DNA from: an uncultured virus (IMG/VR IMGVR_UViG_3300025030_000083)
Taxonomy: Duplodnaviria; Heunggongvirae; Uroviricota; Caudoviricetes
Direction: 5' to 3' (one strand)
DNA length: 64,000 nucleotides
IMG/VR virus record: IMGVR_UViG_3300025030_000083
Coordinates: 1-64,000 of that record
The translations under genes and the position numbers were made by a program. The notes below the pieces were generated by a model that saw nothing but the letters and a program-made list of their open reading frames with translations, was not told the origin of the DNA and made no database searches. Below are positions 15,486-35,221 of the stretch, in pieces; position 1 is the stretch's first letter; the number at the start of each line of letters is the position of its first letter.

Positions 15486-16957
15486 AAAACATAGAATTGG
15501 CTTATATGCAAATAAGTGCCAAGCCTGGAACTAATATAGGGGAATGTTTCCAAGAGGCTCTCATTTTGGCAACTACCGAATGGAGGAACGTTAGATTAAT
15601 GCATAATAGCAAAATGTATTATATATAACCAAATGATTTGATAGGGGCAATAAAAGATAAAGGAGAAATTCAAGAAGAAAGAAAGGAGAAATTTGTCACC
15701 CCAGAAAAACATAGGGAAGACATATACAAATTGGATAATGCTGCTCATGATGCCATCTCCTATGTAGGCCTAGCGAATTATAAGGGGAGAGAAGCAGAAG
15801 CCCACCAAAGGATCACCAAATTAGAAAAGGAACTTTTATCATGAAAATAACTCTGGAACGTAAAAATGATCCTATCCTTAGATCCCCCATTTACATATTA
15901 ACGGTGGGTCTTCATAAGTATCATTACGAGAAACTCACTGATGTTTTACTCAGAGAGGCTATTTTGTTTGAACCTTCTCAGAAAGAAAAGAAACCTAGAC
16001 ATACCATGAAAGTTTCTAAGAAACCAAAGAAGTTTCCATTGGGAGATGTCATATTAAAAATATTACCAAAAAATGATTCTCCTGGTATACCAATGGGGGA
16101 TGTGATTCAACTTACTAAAACCCCCAGATCATTTAGTGCGTCAATTTGGGGAGCAGTGATGGGGAAATTGGTAAAGAAGGGAAAAGTTAAAAGTACAATA
16201 GTGAAAGGCATTAATTATTATAGGAGGGCAAAATGAAGAAAGATCCTATGAGCAGACAAATAGCACCAAGATGGGGAGGATTAAGTAATCTCAGAATGGC
16301 AGAGAAATTAACCTCTGGAGAATGCGTTGATCTGTCTTCTTGCAAAAGAACCAAGGAAGGGGATTATATCCTCACTCAATTTACTGAAGGGGTGGATTAT
16401 TGCGATGCTGATACAGAAAATTGGATTTGGTCTATCGGTTGTAATAATAAAACAGGGAAAATATTAGCATCTACCAGTGCTAAGTTTTATGATAATCCCT
16501 CATTCGTGTGTCTTTGGTTGAGGTGAATATGGATAACAATATAATTGAACACTGGGACAAAGATGAATTAGTTGCTATGGCAAACTCCGTTATATCTGAT
16601 GCAGATGAGATTCAAGGATTCTTGGCACTCCCACCAAATCCATTAAAAGGGCCGATAAATAAATTGGCGGGGAATATTTTAGTTTTAGGTATGTTGGTCA
16701 AAGAGATTTTGAGAAGATCAAATATTAAGTAAGGAGAAAATATGAGATTAGAAAGAAGAGATATATGGTTAGTGGGGTGGTGGAAAATACAAACAAGATC
16801 AAAAGAATTTACCGTAATGTCTGCTTTCTCAACCGAGAAGGAAGCGGAGGAAAAACAAGAATGGTATGAAAAAACATATACAAATAGGGAAGAAACGTAT
16901 GTAATTCAAAAAGTAAAAAGTTGGTTTCCAACGGAATGTTGAAGGAGAAAAAAAATA

Positions 16958-17881
16958 ATGGCCAATTATATAGAACTAAAAACAGAAGATTTCAAAGAAA
17001 TTTTTAATTCTTTACGCTTAAATTATCAAGAATTCGATAACCCCCGATCTGGAGAAATTCAATTCAAAGTTAAAACAGAACACCCCATAATTAGTGTTAT
17101 GATTTATTCTAGTGTAGACAAAAAAATGGGGGTAACAAGAGGAGTGGGGGAAGATGCAATTAGATTAGTTTTTTGGTCAGATAGAGATAATCGGCCTTTG
17201 GGAAAAGGAAAAAGGATCTACCGAGTTACCAATATGAAATCAATTTCCGATAGAATATCAAAAACAATAAAAGAGTTTCTTTCAAAAGCTCCTAATGAAT
17301 CTTTAACCGACTGGAGATATATCAAAGCCATATTAGAAGAAACGGTCAGAATTTCATCCAATCTGTCATTCGCAGAGAATCTTCTCACCGGATTGGAAAA
17401 GTACAAAAGTTTGACAGATGGGCAACTTGCCTATGTTTTGGGGGAAGTTTCTCCCAAAGGGTATGCAACCATGGAGGCGAAAATCCTGTCAAAAGGTTGG
17501 GTATATGATCCTACTTTCGTTGAAGTAGAAGAGGAAATCAGAGAACCAGGAGCCGACGAAAATGAATACGAAGCCCCTATCAAAGGGTGCGAGGCCCCTC
17601 AAGAAAACGGGAACGGGGGAGAGGACAGGGGGGAAAGAGATCGCCAAGTTCAAGTGGGAAAGTATAGCAACATAACAGTAGTATCGGACACTCCGGGGAT
17701 GGAATTAGTGCCCACTACCGGATACCCCTACAAATTTGAAAAATTTAACCCTGTTCAAAGTTTAGTATTCCCGTTTAGAAAAGATGATTGCAATTTGATT
17801 CTAGGATCTTCAACGAGTAGTGGTAAGACAATTGCAGCGGAGATAATTATGGAAGAAATTTTACGAGGGGGGAATCGGTGA
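16958..17881 (+). CDS. N-terminal fragment of a fractured Hel308/Ski2-like SF2 helicase (accessory domain, acidic linker, Q-motif, Walker A)
   Basis: Ends FEKFNPVQ...NLILGSSTSSGKTIAAEIIMEEILRGGNR*. The remaining helicase motifs are in 18833..20743. Confidence 0.85.
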   Translation: MANYIELKTEDFKEIFNSLRLNYQEFDNPRSGEIQFKVKTEHPIISVMIYSSVDKKMGVTRGVGEDAIRLVFWSDRDNRPLGKGKRIYRVTNMKSISDRISKTIKEFLSKAPNESLTDWRYIKAILEETVRISSNLSFAENLLTGLEKYKSLTDGQLAYVLGEVSPKGYATMEAKILSKGWVYDPTFVEVEEEIREPGADENEYEAPIKGCEAPQENGNGGEDRGERDRQVQVGKYSNITVVSDTPGMELVPTTGYPYKFEKFNPVQSLVFPFRKDDCNLILGSSTSSGKTIAAEIIMEEILRGGNR

Positions 17882-18843
17882 AAAGAAAGTTACTTTTAAT
17901 AAAACGAACCATTCCCAAATGTTTGTGTGGGTGCGGCAAAATAGTTAAATCAATAAGACATAATTTTATACATGGACATAATATTGTAATATTAATGAAA
18001 AATGATCCTAATTGGCATAAAAAATTAGAAAAGACAATGATGAAAAAATATGGAGTTAAAAATATTCAACAAATCCCAGAAGTAAGAAGTAGATCAGTAA
18101 AAACTAGAAAAGAAAGATATTCTCATTGGATGGGAAATCTAACAAAAAGTCAAATAGAAGAATTTAAACAAAATTGTTCAAAAGGTGGAAAAATAGGAGG
18201 AAAATCCACCGCAAAAAGATGGAAAGATAACCCAGAAGAATTTAACGAATTTTTAAGAAAAGGCCATGAATCTCAAAAAGGCCCCGGTAATCATTATGAA
18301 AATAGTAGAGGGATTAATAACCCCATGAATTTTCCGGGGATAAGAGAAAAACATAAACAAGCTGTTATAATAGCTATGAACAAAGAAGAAACGAAGAGGA
18401 AACAACGGGAAGGATACTACAAAAAATACGGAGTGCCCTATTTTGTACTAACTGAAGAACATATGAAAAGATTAAAAAATTGTTATTCAAAACCACATAA
18501 AGATCTATTTAATGCCTTACATAATATTGACCCCTCTTTTCAAAAAGAAAAATTAGTTCATACCAAAAAATCTTCTTATAGAGTTGATATTATAAACAAG
18601 CCCACAAAATTAATTATAGAATGCTACGGAGATTACTGGCATTGTAACCCTTTAATATGGAATCCAAATGATTATAATAAATCAATAAAAAGAACTGCCC
18701 AAGAAAAATGGAAAGAAGATGAAAGTAGAATTCAATCCATACAATCTGAAGGATTTAAAGTTTTAGTATTTTGGGAAATGGATATTATTCAAGATTTAGA
18801 GCAAATACTGCAAATTATAATAGGAGTAAAAAATGACAATTAA
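17878..18843 (+). CDS. Free-standing homing endonuclease (NUMOD-type repeats plus Vsr/DUF559-like nuclease) inserted in the helicase gene
   Basis: CLCGCG, KKYGV repeats, YRVDI...IIECYGDYWHCNP, GFKVLVFWE. Overlaps both helicase halves. Confidence 0.85.
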   Translation: MKRKLLLIKRTIPKCLCGCGKIVKSIRHNFIHGHNIVILMKNDPNWHKKLEKTMMKKYGVKNIQQIPEVRSRSVKTRKERYSHWMGNLTKSQIEEFKQNCSKGGKIGGKSTAKRWKDNPEEFNEFLRKGHESQKGPGNHYENSRGINNPMNFPGIREKHKQAVIIAMNKEETKRKQREGYYKKYGVPYFVLTEEHMKRLKNCYSKPHKDLFNALHNIDPSFQKEKLVHTKKSSYRVDIINKPTKLIIECYGDYWHCNPLIWNPNDYNKSIKRTAQEKWKEDESRIQSIQSEGFKVLVFWEMDIIQDLEQILQIIIGVKNDN

Positions 18844-20743
18844 GCAAGAAACAAAAAAAATATTGTACATGGCTCCGTTAAAATCGCTCAGTATGGAAAA
18901 ATATAATGATTGGAAAATCAGATTCCCCGACAAAAAAATATGTATTTTGACGGGGGATTACACCTTAACGGAAGAGAAATCAAGAGAACTTAATCAAGCC
19001 GATATAATCATTTGTACAAGCGAAATGGTAGACTCTCGTACCAGGAGAATGGGAACTGAGAAAGGATTTTGGCTGCACCAAGTGGGACTCCTAATAGTAG
19101 ACGAATCTCATATTTTAACTACATCAAGAGGTTCAGCAGTAGAAGCTGGAGTTATGAGATTTACGTCTATTAATAAAAATGCAAGAATTATTTTTCTATC
19201 CGCCACGATGCCAAACGTGGATGAACTAGGAGCTTGGCTTAAAACTTTAAACGGAAAAGAAACAAAGGTGATTTATTCTACTTGGCGTCCTGTAATTCTT
19301 CAATTTCATTATAAAGAATACCCCATCATAAGAACACGATTTGGAGGAGAAAGTTACCAAGCTGCTCAAGAAGCTAAAAAATCCATCGCTATTGAAATTG
19401 TTAAATCAAAACCTACTGAAAAGTTTTTAGTGTTTACTCATGATAAAGGAATTGGTAGAAGTCTTGTAAAACGATTTGCTGAAGAAGGAATAGAATCTCA
19501 ATTTCATAATGCAGATTTAGATTTAAATGAAAGACAAGAAATAGAGTCATCTTTTAGAAAAAGAGATGGTGGATTAAGAACTATGATTTCTACATCTACC
19601 ACTGCATGGGGTGTCAATCTCCCAGCAAGAAACGTAATTATAGTAGGCATTCATAGAGGAATTACAGAAGTAGATGAACTAGATATTCTGCAGATGTCAG
19701 GCAGAGCCGGAAGATACGGAATTGACTTGCAAGGAGACGTTTATTTAATCATTCCAGAAATGACTACAGAATCTTGGAAAGAAGTTTTTAGAAATCCAAG
19801 ACCTGTTACCTCCGTACTAAAATCTCACCAAGTTCTCGCATTTCACGTTTTAGCAGAAATTCAAAATAAAGTAGTAACGGACGCCAAATCTCTTCTTGCT
19901 TGGTACTCTCGTTCTCTAGCATATTTTCAAAAAGAAGAATTTACTATTGAAGATGCTAAAGGACTTTTAAACGATCTGGAAAAAATGGAAATGGTAATAA
20001 ATAAGGAGACTCATTACATTTTAACGGGGTTAGGAAAAGTATCAGGGTGGTTATATTTTTCACCTTACGACGTTTATCACTGGTTCAAGAATTTTGACCA
20101 ATTATTCGGAACCCCAAAAACAAACGATGTTTGTCCAGTTTGTAAACTTCCCAATATTATAACAGAACCCAAAATTTGTTGCGGATATTGTGGATGGTCT
20201 TATACAAAACCCATAGTAGATGATATATCCATATCATGGGCTTTAACAGATATTCCCTCGCATGATTGGGGGTACCTACCTAAAGAAATAAAAGATTTAG
20301 CGGAGGAAATGAGATGGAAACTTCGTAACCGGGGAATTATGGCGTCAGATGCTATACATTTTTCGTTGGCTGCTTATAAATTACTAAATGGAGATGAATT
20401 AGACGGTCCTTTGAAAACTAATGCTCGAACTATTAAATATGATATTCAACGAGTAATTCAGGCATTAAGTTTAATAGATTTTCATCATGGACGTTGGGAC
20501 AAAAAAGAATTTTGGAAAATTATCCCAATTAGAATTCAATATGGAATACCAGAGGAAATGATCCCCCTCGTAAAAATTCCAGGGATCGGGGGAGTTAAGG
20601 CACGCAAACTTTTTGATAGAGGGATTCATTCTTTACAAGATATCCTTGAAAAGACGGAGGTTTTGAAATCTATTTTTGTCCCCACATTCGTCAAGAAAAT
20701 ACAAAATGACGCCCGTAAAATAATATTAGCGGAGGGGAAATGA
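18833..20743 (+). CDS. C-terminal fragment of the Hel308/Ski2-like helicase
   Basis: Motif Ia YMAPLKSL, II VDESH, III LSATMPN, FHNADL, V STSTTAWGVNLPA, VI QMSGRAGR, winged helix, Zn-ribbon insert, C-terminal HhH IPGIGGVKARKL. Own AGGAG RBS. Confidence 0.9.
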   Translation: MTIKQETKKILYMAPLKSLSMEKYNDWKIRFPDKKICILTGDYTLTEEKSRELNQADIIICTSEMVDSRTRRMGTEKGFWLHQVGLLIVDESHILTTSRGSAVEAGVMRFTSINKNARIIFLSATMPNVDELGAWLKTLNGKETKVIYSTWRPVILQFHYKEYPIIRTRFGGESYQAAQEAKKSIAIEIVKSKPTEKFLVFTHDKGIGRSLVKRFAEEGIESQFHNADLDLNERQEIESSFRKRDGGLRTMISTSTTAWGVNLPARNVIIVGIHRGITEVDELDILQMSGRAGRYGIDLQGDVYLIIPEMTTESWKEVFRNPRPVTSVLKSHQVLAFHVLAEIQNKVVTDAKSLLAWYSRSLAYFQKEEFTIEDAKGLLNDLEKMEMVINKETHYILTGLGKVSGWLYFSPYDVYHWFKNFDQLFGTPKTNDVCPVCKLPNIITEPKICCGYCGWSYTKPIVDDISISWALTDIPSHDWGYLPKEIKDLAEEMRWKLRNRGIMASDAIHFSLAAYKLLNGDELDGPLKTNARTIKYDIQRVIQALSLIDFHHGRWDKKEFWKIIPIRIQYGIPEEMIPLVKIPGIGGVKARKLFDRGIHSLQDILEKTEVLKSIFVPTFVKKIQNDARKIILAEGK

Positions 20744-20843
20744 TTCTAAAGAAAAGATATATAGAATACGTTAGAATAGAAAACCTTCGAACACCATCTA
20801 ACAGTAGAGATCATAGAATGCGACGCCCCTGTATTCAAAACGA

Positions 20844-20918
20844 GGGTCCTTATCTCAATGGTAGAGAAAGCGGCCCATAACCGCTGCTATCCCGGTTCGA
20901 ATCTGGGAGGACCCACCA
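20844..20918 (+). tRNA. tRNA with CAU anticodon (probably Ile2; elongator Met not excluded), encoded CCA
   Basis: Cloverleaf: acceptor GGGTCCT/AGGACCC, D stem TCTC/GAGA, anticodon stem AGCGG/CCGCT with loop CCCATAA, T arm CCCGG-TTCGAAT-CTGGG, A73 then CCA. Confidence 0.9.
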
Positions 20919-21261
20919 AATATTAAGGGGGGATGAAAATGAAAACGTGGGACGAGATTCAGAAAGATGCTAAAAAGGGGCCTTTGAAAAAGAACAAGAA
21001 TTGGTTCTTAAATGAAAAAGAAAGGTTAGTTATATTGGCAGTTGGAAAATTGGTAGAAGAAGTCCAACGAAAAGTGGTGGAAGACTTCCATGACGGAGAT
21101 AAAAATTACGATTGCGATAGTTCTTTATGTAAAGCATTAAAAGAATTTAATAATATTAAATAATAGAAATAATGATTTACTTTTTAATGGGGACATTATT
21201 TAAAAGACTATGAAAAAAGTGGATAGAATGAAAGTCGCATGATTAAACGGAGGAGAATACT

Positions 21262-21471
21262 TTGATTTGGTTCCTTAGCGATACGCATTTCAACCATAGT
21301 GCGATAGTCACTTATTGCGGTCGCCCGTTTAAAGATGCGAAAGATATGGACGATACTATTATTCGAAATTGGAATGAAATAGTAAAACCAGAAGATACCG
21401 TTTATCGTTTAGGGGACTTCGCCTTATGCTATACAATGAATTTCTGGACAGAAATAAAGGAGAAAAAATGA
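21262..21471 (+). pseudogene. Truncated calcineurin-like metallophosphoesterase
   Basis: SDTHFNH, IIRNWN..V...D.VY.LGDF, then it stops before the GNHD and later motifs. Confidence 0.7.
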
Positions 21472-21968
21472 CAAAAAGAAATCCAGAGGATTACAAGAAA
21501 ATTATCATAAGATGGGCCGTTCAATTCTCCCCATCTTTGAAAGAAGACATAGATGATCTAATTCAAGAGGGGTATATGTGCTACATGGAACTATTAAAAT
21601 ATGAAGAAGAATATGGATTGGATTGCTCTTTCGAAGCTGCACTATCTAATCATATCAAAACTACTTTTCTTATTTTCTACAAAAAAAATAAGGCCGCAAA
21701 GAGAACGGGGGAAATGATAGATTTTGCTTATATGGAAGAAATGATGGGGAAAAACCCCTGGAGGAAAATAGAAGAATATATCAGTCTTTCGAAGGAAATG
21801 AGGGAGGTGGCAGATGTAGTTCTATCCGCTCCACAAGAGTTTATTGACTTAATACGAATGGAAGATTTTAAAACGGGTTTGTCCAAATATATGAGAAAAT
21901 ATAAAGGGTGGTCATTAAAGAAAGTAAACCAATTCTGGGAAGAATTCAAGTTAAAGGAAAACGTATAG
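21468..21968 (+). CDS. Sigma-factor-like protein (sigma70 region 2-like)
   Basis: DIDDLIQEGY...F.A.L...IK resembles sigma region 2. AAGGAG RBS before ATG 21468. Confidence 0.6.
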   Translation: MTKRNPEDYKKIIIRWAVQFSPSLKEDIDDLIQEGYMCYMELLKYEEEYGLDCSFEAALSNHIKTTFLIFYKKNKAAKRTGEMIDFAYMEEMMGKNPWRKIEEYISLSKEMREVADVVLSAPQEFIDLIRMEDFKTGLSKYMRKYKGWSLKKVNQFWEEFKLKENV

Positions 21969-32945: not shown

Positions 32946-33815
32946 ATGAGAAAATTAATATGGCCTACTTATGGCGGAGTATACAAGATATTAAATGTAA
33001 TGAATGGTAAAGTTTATGTGGGGTCCGCTGCTAATTTTAAATCTAGATGGAAGTTTCATTTAGGCCAACTTCGTTACGGAAACCATCACTCTATAACTCT
33101 TCAAAGAGCTTATAACAAATATGGTGAAAGGAATTTTATGTTCGTAATTATAGAAGTAATAAAAGATAAAACAAAATTGAAAGAAAGAGAACAAATTTGG
33201 AAAGATTTTTATAAATCATATGATCCGAGATATGGATATGATATATGTCCTAAAGCTGAAAATTGCTTAGGAGTAAAACATACTCCAGAAACATGTGCCA
33301 AAAGATCTGTGGCCACCAAAAGAAATTGGGCAAATCCTGAATGCAGAGAAAGAATTATGACAAATCTAAAAAAAAGTCTATCCGATCCAGAATATAAATC
33401 TAAAATGGCAAAGATAACTAAAAAGATGTGGGAAAATCCAGAACTAAGAAAAAAAATGTTAGATGGCCAAAATAATAGAAAACCTCTAAGTACGGAAACC
33501 AAAAATAAAATCGCCTTTAGAAATAGAGAAATAGCCAAAGATCCTGAATGGAGAGCTAAAGTGTCCGCATCAAACAAAGGAAAAGTTAGGAGTGAAGAAG
33601 CTAGAGCTAATATGTCTATAGCCCAAAAGGGAAGGCCGAGAAAACCCCACTCTGCAGAGACTAAAGCAAAAATAGCAAAAGCTGCCCATAAACGATGGGC
33701 AAATCCTAAATTTCAAGAAAAAATGAAAAACATAATGGATAGTAAAGAATACCACGATAAAATATCTAAATCTCAAAAGATAAGATACAATAAACAAAAA
33801 GAAACTAAGCAATGA
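32946..33815 (+). CDS. GIY-YIG homing endonuclease with NUMOD3 repeats
   Basis: GVYKILN...KVYVGS...RW..H, REQ.W.D, H+.ETKAKI repeats. Confidence 0.9.
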   Translation: MRKLIWPTYGGVYKILNVMNGKVYVGSAANFKSRWKFHLGQLRYGNHHSITLQRAYNKYGERNFMFVIIEVIKDKTKLKEREQIWKDFYKSYDPRYGYDICPKAENCLGVKHTPETCAKRSVATKRNWANPECRERIMTNLKKSLSDPEYKSKMAKITKKMWENPELRKKMLDGQNNRKPLSTETKNKIAFRNREIAKDPEWRAKVSASNKGKVRSEEARANMSIAQKGRPRKPHSAETKAKIAKAAHKRWANPKFQEKMKNIMDSKEYHDKISKSQKIRYNKQKETKQ

Positions 33816-35221
33816 ATATAAAAATAATAAATTCTATATTCAGCAAGGTTAATACTTATGAAGACGCTAAAATTTTGGCAGATTTCCTAAAATATAAAGA
33901 AACGTATTGGCGCCAAACTCAATTTAGACGAGTGGAAAAAGAATATTATAAACCATTAGTTAAAAAAGGCGAATTTTTAACCGGGTTTATTCCTAGAGTA
34001 AAAAATTATTGTATATCAAACAACATACCTATTAACATAGAGGAACCACCATTACCACTAATACCATATTTTACTGATGACCAAATAGAAAATATCACTA
34101 TTCCGAGAGGACTTAAATTAAAACCGGATCAAGTCTTTGCTATAAAAAATATTCTTACGAATATACGAGGGGTAATTTTTCACCCTACCGGCTCGGGAAA
34201 AACAATAATTTTTCTATCTTTTATTTCTTTATTTCCTGATTTAAACAGTCTTATTGTAGTAAATACTAAAGACATATTAGAGCAAACATTTGAACGCGCC
34301 TCTGAGTTTTTTCCCAAAGAAGTAGGCAAACTGGGGGGAGGATATAATTCCCCAAATAGAATAACTATAGCGACGATTCAAACATTAAAAGATATTCCAT
34401 CGGATAGTTTATTTTTCAAAGAAATAGATATAGTAGTAATCGACGAAACTCATCACTGCGCTAGATTTTCAAAACCGTTTAGTACGGAGGGTGGTGGATC
34501 CTACGCTAAAGTATTATCATCAATTGATTGCCCATTCAAAATTGGGTTTACTGCCACCCTCCCTCATGAGGGGAAAGGACAACTAGCACTTGAAGGTTAC
34601 ATAGGGCCAGTCATTTCAAAAAAGAAAATTTCAGAGGTGGAAAGATTGGCAAAAATAAAAGTTATTCTAAAAAAGTTGCCCATTACGTTGGCCGCTAGAG
34701 AAGCGAAGTCATATCAGGAAGTATATAAATATTCCGTAACGTTCAATAGCCGACGCCATAAACTAGTTCTACAAACGGCTGATAATTTAGTAAAAGCTGG
34801 CAGAACCGTACTTATCATCGTATCACTTGTACAACATGGAAATAATATTCTTGATATGGCACATAGATTATTTCCTCATCTACGAATTGAATTTGTTTGG
34901 AGTAAGATACCTGGAACCACTCGTACAACAATAAAAAAAGATTTAAATGAAGGATTGGTAGATGTAGTAATTGCAGATGCAGTTTGGAAAGAAGGGGTCG
35001 ATATTCCTACATTAGGGGCAATTATAAACGCTGCCGGAGGAAAATCAGAAATTAATACAATACAATCCCTCGGGAGGGGATTGCGCACCGTTCCTGGAAT
35101 AAAAGATGATGTTATTTTGGTAGATATTCTAGATATTAGTTCACGCTATTTAGTTGAGCATTTTGGACTAAGGTTAGTTTTATATTTTGACGAGGGATGG
35201 ATGGGAAATGAACAATTTTAA
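33812..35221 (+). CDS. SF2 DNA helicase (UvsW-like)
   Basis: PTGSGKT, IATIQTL, DETHH, GFTAT, EGVDIP, IQSLGRGLR. Confidence 0.9.
   Translation: MNIKIINSIFSKVNTYEDAKILADFLKYKETYWRQTQFRRVEKEYYKPLVKKGEFLTGFIPRVKNYCISNNIPINIEEPPLPLIPYFTDDQIENITIPRGLKLKPDQVFAIKNILTNIRGVIFHPTGSGKTIIFLSFISLFPDLNSLIVVNTKDILEQTFERASEFFPKEVGKLGGGYNSPNRITIATIQTLKDIPSDSLFFKEIDIVVIDETHHCARFSKPFSTEGGGSYAKVLSSIDCPFKIGFTATLPHEGKGQLALEGYIGPVISKKKISEVERLAKIKVILKKLPITLAAREAKSYQEVYKYSVTFNSRRHKLVLQTADNLVKAGRTVLIIVSLVQHGNNILDMAHRLFPHLRIEFVWSKIPGTTRTTIKKDLNEGLVDVVIADAVWKEGVDIPTLGAIINAAGGKSEINTIQSLGRGLRTVPGIKDDVILVDILDISSRYLVEHFGLRLVLYFDEGWMGNEQF

Follow-up and report, generated by a model that had tools for sequence, protein, structure and literature searches.

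The stretch of DNA analysed here, 64,000 nucleotides (nt) long and referred to below as the window, comprises positions 1 to 64,000 of the record of an uncultured virus, IMGVR_UViG_3300025030_000083 (75,291 nt in IMG/VR, CheckV completeness 45%), and in it a gene for a superfamily 2 (SF2) helicase of the Ski2/Hel308 type is found in two pieces, with a free-standing homing-endonuclease gene between them. The three open reading frames (ORFs) involved, A, B and C (Table 1), lie on the plus strand together with all other large genes of the window, which include replication functions such as a primase, a DnaB-like helicase, a clamp and RtcB. An earlier note on this DNA had claimed that the endonuclease ORF fills the gap and overlaps both helicase halves, and that the second half has an AGGAG of its own. 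The ORF coordinates bear out both claims: the TGA stop of ORF A (17879-17881) overlaps the GTG start of ORF B (17878-17880) in the string GGTGA, ORFs B and C overlap by 11 nt, and the AGGAG lies within the 3' end of ORF B. The run GAGGGGGG in the last codons of ORF A ends 5 nt upstream of the GTG and, judging by its position, would be a Shine-Dalgarno-like element for the start of ORF B. ORF A terminates 16 residues past the GKT of its Walker A motif and ORF C begins at motif Ia. The GC content is 27-33% inside the insert versus 35-48% in the flanks. The same locus DNA is present, 100% identical, on the contigs L004 and L105, so the ORF pattern at the locus is not due to chance; both of these contigs, as well as L085, represent the same phage as the window. 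A scan of 16400-21200 yielded 23 promoter-like matches, not clearly above the 16.2 +/- 3.4 in shuffled sequences, and 4 terminator-like matches (3.3 in shuffles), with no plus-strand terminator within A-B-C; a blastn search of the region against GenBank phages gave no match. Over 13 kb, the only differences between the window and L085 are clustered at 17299-17315 inside ORF A (6 substitutions and 2+2 single-base gaps, after which the frame is restored), which is either a local variant or an assembly artefact.

Table 1. Features of the interrupted helicase locus, in window coordinates
Feature	Position	Strand	Description
ORF A, N-terminal helicase half	16958..17881	+	307 amino acids (aa), ends in SSGKTIAAEIIMEEILRGGNR and the stop
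ORF A, content			family-specific N-terminal domain (about residues 1-250), Q motif FNPVQS, Walker A SSGKT, helix, 1 non-native residue, stop
Shine-Dalgarno-like run GAGGGGGG	17865..17872	+	in the last ORF A codons; read from the sequence
Inserted segment relative to L006	17876..18853	+	~978 nt, placement +/- about one codon, low GC
ORF B, free-standing homing-endonuclease gene	17878..18843	+	321 aa, GTG start
AGGAG ribosome-binding site for ORF C	18822..18826	+	located in the 3' end of ORF B and spaced 6 nt from the ATG
ORF C, C-terminal helicase half	18833..20743	+	636 aa, starts MTIKQETKKILYMAPLKSL
ORF C, content			7-residue non-native leader MTIKQET, motif Ia onward, DEsH, SAT, Helicase_C (second RecA-like domain), putative C-terminal helix-hairpin-helix (HhH)

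The extent of the insert is defined by uninterrupted orthologues, the search for which the earlier note had proposed as a check. One such orthologue (L006:4077-6902) is a single ORF of 941 aa that is 71-75% identical to the window halves, another (L007:4164-6848) is a single ORF of 894 aa with 44% identity, and the site is spanned in 95 of the 120 best protein hits; the joined sequence which that note had put together from the two halves is the one found in L006 and L007. In a codon-level comparison with L006, the homology extends to the AAT at 17873-17875 and restarts at the AAA at 18854, such that no native residue is lost or duplicated at the joint, ORF A gaining one foreign residue and ORF C seven. 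ORF B covers 966 of the ~978 inserted bases, in a different frame, and the helicase frame across the insert contains 36 stops. The Pfam DEAD profile is shared out between the two ORFs, with positions 1-39 on residues 264-302 of ORF A and positions 42-166 on residues 4-131 of ORF C, in accord with the split just after the Walker A motif and its helix, and before motif Ia, that had been read from the DNA at the outset. No intron family was detected in an Rfam scan of 16000-21500 at expectation values (E) up to 1, the only matches being to a tRNA and a chance snoRNA-like one; no intein domain was detected by Pfam in ORFs A, B and C, and a tail of one residue and a leader of seven leave no room for intein halves. 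There is, then, no evidence in the sequence for an intron or an intein at the break, as the earlier note had also held. In HMMER alignments to solved structures, the cut position corresponds to insertions of 2 to ~12 residues in Slh1 and Brr2 and sits between the post-P-loop helix and the motif Ia strand. In RecA-like folds the connection between these two elements lies at the surface. The conserved coding blocks that flank the site (GKT..AE and Y..PLK.L) would be convenient for an endonuclease dependent on a target that many phages have in common. Among the contigs assembled from 4 DNA runs, which drop rare variants, no joint across the insert, that is, no endonuclease-free allele, was seen. 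A low-depth metagenome contig of 152 nt (run X15, record 4) matches the end of ORF A at 17810-17857 with 4 differences and, past 17857, continues into a different tail (...VMEHGV and a stop) that resembles those of the split genes on contigs L099 and L104 (see below); it may come from a second split allele in the same habitat.

The assignment of the helicase to the Hel308/Ski2 type, made previously from the motifs, is upheld by a phmmer comparison of the whole orthologue L006 with the PDB, in which the matches are to ASCC3 (1.6e-50), Brr2 (~1e-45), Hel308 (2p6r, 1.5e-43) and Ski2/Mtr4 (1e-23 to 1e-29); a match to PHROG 6819, annotated as a Holliday junction branch migration helicase, has an E of 2e-49. 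In Pfam, ORF C matches DEAD positions 42-166 at 2.3e-17 and Helicase_C at 1.6e-11, and its residues 576-609 match an HhH (HHH_5, 1.5e-5, under the Pfam cut-off). The FNPVQS and SSGKT positions of ORF A are invariant in the family alignment, and so are D90, E91, H93, S123-A124-T125, R291, G293 and R294 of ORF C (alignment A1). The suggestion that a Ski2 helicase is unusual in a phage did not hold: family scans confirmed stretches that encode relatives, 197 in viral contigs and 396 in metagenome contigs, and the family is common in uncultured phages. ORF A aligns with residues 1-307 of whole orthologues, and because whole orthologues and hits span the site, its N-terminal part of about 260 aa is to be regarded as a native domain of the family and not as a by-product of the split. 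There is also a short form of the family without this domain, for example, in the 595-kb record LR756511.1. Residues 1-110 of ORF A (16958-17290) match many stand-alone proteins of 95-230 aa (HMMER, E of 1e-5 to 1e-9) and, weakly, PHROG 28038; a search of the ESM Atlas with the N-terminal domain gave no usable match.

The cut is not peculiar to the window. As far as can be judged from the sequences, many lineages of the family have a break in the motif I/Ia loop, and seven distinct arrangements at the same position were verified on DNA. The first is that of the window and of L004, L085 and L105, with the 321-aa DUF559/Vsr-like ORF B. The second (L008/L090) has an HNH-type gene of 239 aa that in Pfam matches NUMOD3 alone, its HNH region aligning with the HNH-bearing proteins P0123 and P0124; the third (L010/L097) has a DUF559 gene of 279 aa, the fourth (L099) an HNH gene of 317 aa and the fifth (L104) an HNH-type gene of 292 aa. 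In the sixth (L122), there is no endonuclease, the halves being separated by a spacer of 50 nt with GAAGGAGG, and in the seventh (L024/L146), the halves are 4.4 kb apart, with six ORFs between them, one of which encodes an NAD-dependent DNA ligase (9e-79). Each of the seven has its N half intact, upstream and on the same strand. At this site, 77 of the 81 viral loci are continuous and four are cut, and the 80 metagenome loci comprise 63 that are continuous, 7 that are cut with both halves visible, 3 that start at the site and 7 fragments short of it; some contigs appear in both locus sets, and the viral and metagenome counts are therefore not independent. L112, one of the 3 that start at the site, was rejected as a C half and was not counted; it is probably a whole gene ended by the contig edge.

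In a FastTree phylogeny of the C parts of 120 hits, 16 of which are labelled split by the start of the protein, 95 whole and 9 left without a label, the split label requires 10 changes, of which well-supported branches make at least 9 unavoidable; in 500 shuffles of the label, the mean was 15.1 changes and none was as low as 10. From the other side of the break, a HMMER search with ORF A retrieved 181 proteins at E up to 0.001, and 14 of the 22 representatives inspected are stand-alone N halves of 270-319 aa, from 14 separate clusters, which resemble ORF A at the start and stop 12-18 residues past the GKT.

Other places in the same family are also interrupted. At L026:1096-4953 (also on L154), the helicase is fractured at motif V (TLAWG / NLPARNV), where an N-intein tail, a free-standing DUF559 endonuclease gene of 240 aa and a C-intein head that ends in THN and is followed by C are found in succession; this endonuclease and that of the motif I/Ia site in L010 share 30% identity (1e-23). 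An in-frame intein was rejected for L026, given 21 stops in frame, in favour of a split intein with an endonuclease gene. A short-form helicase of 1,026 aa (L079:3756-6836) has an apparent full intein, with a LAGLIDADG-like stretch recognized by eye in the translation, that sits in the P-loop between the GK and the T (TSSGK...VTHN TVVAEM). At L136:6502-7976, there is a gap of 1,474 nt in the helicase match, at reference positions 602/603 and with the same frame on both sides, which may be another insertion site. Finally, the C parts P0006 (on a 132-kb contig) and P0110 (which has a foreign leader of 66 residues) start at reference position 369 (MVDSRTRR...), which may represent a third break point in this family.

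The endonuclease itself appears to be composite. ORF B matches DUF559 in Pfam with 25.1 bits (cut-off 20.6), along with DUF7487 and homing-endonuclease families of PHROG. Its N-terminal portion, with a CxCGCG motif and a DUF7487-type region, recurs in HNH endonucleases from the same break in the helicase gene. Over residues 2-197, the identity to the N-terminal parts of HNH enzymes is 42-45%, the matches being to those of L099 (8e-49) and L104 (1e-20), both situated at this very break, and to P0123 (2e-51) and P0124 (2e-38); the contig of P0124 is as long as that of the split half P0114, which is no more than a hint. In contrast, the region from residue ~145 to 317 is 30-44% identical to the DUF559-type proteins P0125-P0130, and within this C-terminal DUF559/Vsr-like nuclease domain the motif IIECYGDYWHCNP is intact, VDI...IIECYGDYWHCNP...FWEMD aligning with six DUF559-type relatives. 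ORF B thus seems to be a chimera in which the recognition part has been kept at the site and the cutting domain differs. A phmmer search of the PDB with ORF B at E up to 10 gave nothing significant, the best nuclease match being a DUF559 structure (3hrl, E 1.1), and I-Bth0305I was absent from the matches. Every copy of ORF B that was found belongs to the same phage.

Signs of mobility come from another of the endonuclease genes found at this position. Between L128 and L008, a single base differs over 1,008 nt, which encompass the HNH-type gene and the first ~260 nt of the C half, and past this tract they are ~13% different. Most of the changes there fall on the third base of codons; in 285 codons, 58 differences are synonymous and 8 non-synonymous. 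This pattern is as expected of homing with co-conversion and suggests that the HNH-type gene has moved in this manner. The single difference, within the HNH-type gene (L128:30-569 against L008:1964-2683), is a change of CAA to a TAA stop before the HNH motif, the downstream helicase C half being intact, and it marks either the onset of decay or a sequencing error. Taken as a series with L122 and L024, these loci read as invasion, decay and loss of the endonuclease, the cut itself persisting.

Do the two halves still behave as parts of an enzyme? A set of 163 columns that are at least 95% conserved was defined on 90 whole proteins, all of them hits of 840 aa or longer; the 16 split rows, the 9 unlabelled ones and 5 shorter whole ones were excluded. 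Overall, both halves retain 90-100% of the residues conserved in the family. The window keeps 36 of the 37 conserved positions in ORF A and 124 of the 126 in ORF C; in seven split N halves, 33-37 positions are retained out of the 34-37 covered, and split C halves keep 114-126 of 126 (113/115 and 118/124 in two partial rows), with whole proteins averaging 98-99% and a minimum of 94% for the C part. The residues of the ATP site are retained in the split forms on both sides of the break, namely, the GKT and the Q motif on A, and the DEsH, the SAT and the motif VI arginines on C. In the clades P0088/P0095/P0097 and P0048/P0058, the members share a homologous leader peptide, so in each the cut is older than their divergence; in these clades, 2-7 of the 126 conserved columns differ as against 23-34% of the other columns (Fisher p of 1.8e-6 to 3.7e-17). 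For the window itself, the ratio of non-synonymous to synonymous rates (dN/dS) in both halves, a check that the earlier note had recommended, comes to 0.17 (A) and 0.14 (C) relative to L006, with dS at 1.3-1.5, which is near saturation; past the closest pair, the estimates are saturated, with infinite dS. Relative rates against the outgroups L086 and L087 reveal no consistent speed-up: dN of the C half is 0.231 versus 0.285 and 0.282 for the unsplit L006, and that of the A half is 0.405 versus 0.410, and 0.388 versus 0.319.

Several observations weigh against the notion of a helicase that is maintained in two working parts. Some old split forms score lower than the whole-protein minimum of 94%, with 114/126 for P0114 and 117/126 for P0100/L122. 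The sole close split relative of the window, P0019 (93% identical), has a different leader peptide, and the dN/dS values given above are accordingly averages over the time before and after the insertion. Furthermore, the check on DNA covers just 6 of the 16 proteins labelled split in the tree, the other labels being based on the predicted protein start.

In the vicinity of the locus, a metallophosphoesterase-like gene (21262-21471) is truncated, just residues 1-61 of the 178-aa orthologue (L006:7096-7632) being found anywhere in the window, and is followed by an unrelated ORF of 180 aa without a Pfam match (21426-21968). Further downstream, a GIY-YIG homing-endonuclease gene (32946-33815; PHROG 314, 1.8e-31) lies directly upstream of a second SF2 helicase (33812-35221). 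The region 32946-35221 was considered as a second split helicase and rejected, this helicase being whole, with its own GSGKT and DETH, and the GIY-YIG gene being intergenic.

The best account of the locus, and in our opinion a highly probable one, is that it represents an intron-less and intein-less gene in pieces, in which an endonuclease gene is lodged within the DNA for the motif I/Ia loop of a phage Ski2/Hel308-type helicase. The insert gives the upstream half its stop, which overlaps the GTG of ORF B, and the downstream half an AGGAG, an ATG and a leader of seven codons. One transcript would then yield three separate proteins from ORFs A, B and C. Chain A would carry the N-terminal domain, the Q motif, the first strand, the P-loop and the helix. 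The remainder of RecA domain 1 would come from chain C, along with RecA domain 2 and the accessory domains; the two chains would reassemble non-covalently, with an ATP site built from the Walker A of chain A and the DEsH and motif VI of chain C. The best reading of A and C is that together they would form a working two-chain helicase of the Ski2/Hel308 type, which is suggested by the recurrence of the same cut, by the intact and conserved halves, and by the retention of both halves even where they are 4.4 kb apart. ORF B, for its part, would spread by cleaving the alleles of co-infecting relatives that lack an endonuclease, the repair of the break then copying it in; its cleavage activity and target site are predicted ones. 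The site would serve as a repeated landing place, and a gene once cut would stay cut after decay or loss of the endonuclease.

Could the helicase simply be dead? The insertion might have inactivated a dispensable gene, ORFs A and C being young remnants that have not yet decayed. The window allele has no diverged split sister for which DNA is available, L004, L085 and L105 being the same phage, and the truncated metallophosphoesterase next door means that this phage does carry gene remnants. Against this stand two ORFs that are intact and lack 1 and 2 of their conserved positions, respectively, an insert that brings a ribosome-binding site, an ATG and an overlapping stop and start, the absence of a consistent speed-up relative to L086 and L087, and the other lineages that have held both halves under constraint long after the cut. 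With all of this taken into account, we deem a dead helicase unlikely. Still less credence can be given to the view that the halves are no longer one enzyme and that each acts alone or with other partners, with C, for instance, as an ATP-independent DNA-binding protein and A acting through its N-terminal domain. The start of that domain can indeed exist by itself, considering the stand-alone proteins matched by the first ~110 residues of ORF A, and there are six ORFs between the halves in L024; nevertheless, the ATP-site residues have been kept on both sides, which is sensible only if the site is still assembled, and both halves are on the same strand in all of the DNA-verified arrangements. 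Restoration of a single chain, whether through a self-splicing intron around ORF B, protein splicing or ribosomal bypass, is extremely improbable: A and C are in the same frame, the length of the insert is a multiple of three, and the family does host inteins (in the P-loop in L079, and split at motif V in L026), yet the Rfam and Pfam scans recovered neither an intron family nor an intein, ORF B occupies nearly the whole insert in another frame, the helicase frame is riddled with stops, the tail and the leader are too short for intein halves, and the two halves are 4.4 kb apart in L024 and separated in L122 by a 50-nt spacer with its own ribosome-binding site.

Genes in pieces of this kind are already known, and the SF2 helicase is a new example of a host enzyme. 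In Aeromonas phage Aeh1, nrdA is cut by the HNH endonuclease gene mobE into NrdA-a and NrdA-b (Friedrich et al., 2007; reviewed in PMC2988022), and the two-chain NrdA was shown to be active. The two cases have in common a free-standing endonuclease gene within the gene of a conserved enzyme, no intron or intein, two polypeptides, and a stop/start overlap suggestive of translational coupling; they differ in that the host gene in the window encodes an SF2 helicase cut within a RecA-like domain, the nuclease is DUF559/Vsr-like rather than HNH, activity of the two chains is inferred for the helicase, and the cut recurs in many helicase lineages. A free-standing gene for a Vsr-like endonuclease also fractures an SbcD-like gene that lacks an intein (Dassa et al., 2009; PMC2677866). 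That case is similar in having a Vsr-related nuclease ORF between the halves of a DNA-repair enzyme, short non-native tails and no split intein. The host enzyme is a different one, and no kinship between ORF B, which matches DUF559, and the nuclease family of that paper was seen by sequence. The same source describes fractured genes with a split intein and a free-standing endonuclease, the type seen in L026/L154 at motif V, in contrast to the window break, which has no intein halves. The split gene 43 (43A/43B) of Aeromonas phages 25 and 44RR, and T4 genes 39/60 with mobA (PMC2988022), resemble the present case in that related phages hold either an endonuclease gene or a mere untranslated spacer, as do the window and L122, respectively; these host enzymes, too, are different, and swapped nuclease domains at one site are not described for them in the portion of the review at hand. 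The literature searched, to the extent that its texts were accessible, did not reveal any Ski2/Hel308-type helicase interrupted by a free-standing endonuclease. What the helicase adds to the known cases is the position of the cut inside a RecA-like domain, its recurrence in many lineages, and site endonucleases that range from intact to decayed to lost.

A more far-reaching possibility, which we put forward tentatively and with more doubt than confidence, is that the motif I/Ia loop might long have served as a landing pad for a single lineage of homing endonucleases that keeps its DNA-recognition part (the CxCGCG motif and the DUF7487-type region) and swaps HNH and Vsr-like cutting domains, ORF B being one such chimera, and that repeated invasions might have converted a single-chain SF2 helicase into a stable two-subunit one, with the P-loop strand supplied in trans, that outlives the endonuclease (as in L122 and L024). 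If this is true, the two subunits could be placed, and perhaps regulated, as independent genes.

In more general terms, the few enzymes that apparently withstand the splitting of their gene by a selfish endonuclease gene are joined by an SF2 helicase, in which the cut is at an unexpected place, given that Walker A and Walker B would sit on different chains. The cut point also suggests a natural place for the engineering of split helicases. The family provides a natural series, from whole genes through genes cut by HNH or Vsr-like endonucleases to those in which the endonuclease has decayed or is lost and those with distant halves, which can be used to study how endonucleases choose and reuse a site, how nuclease domains are exchanged, and how much breakage the helicase core tolerates.

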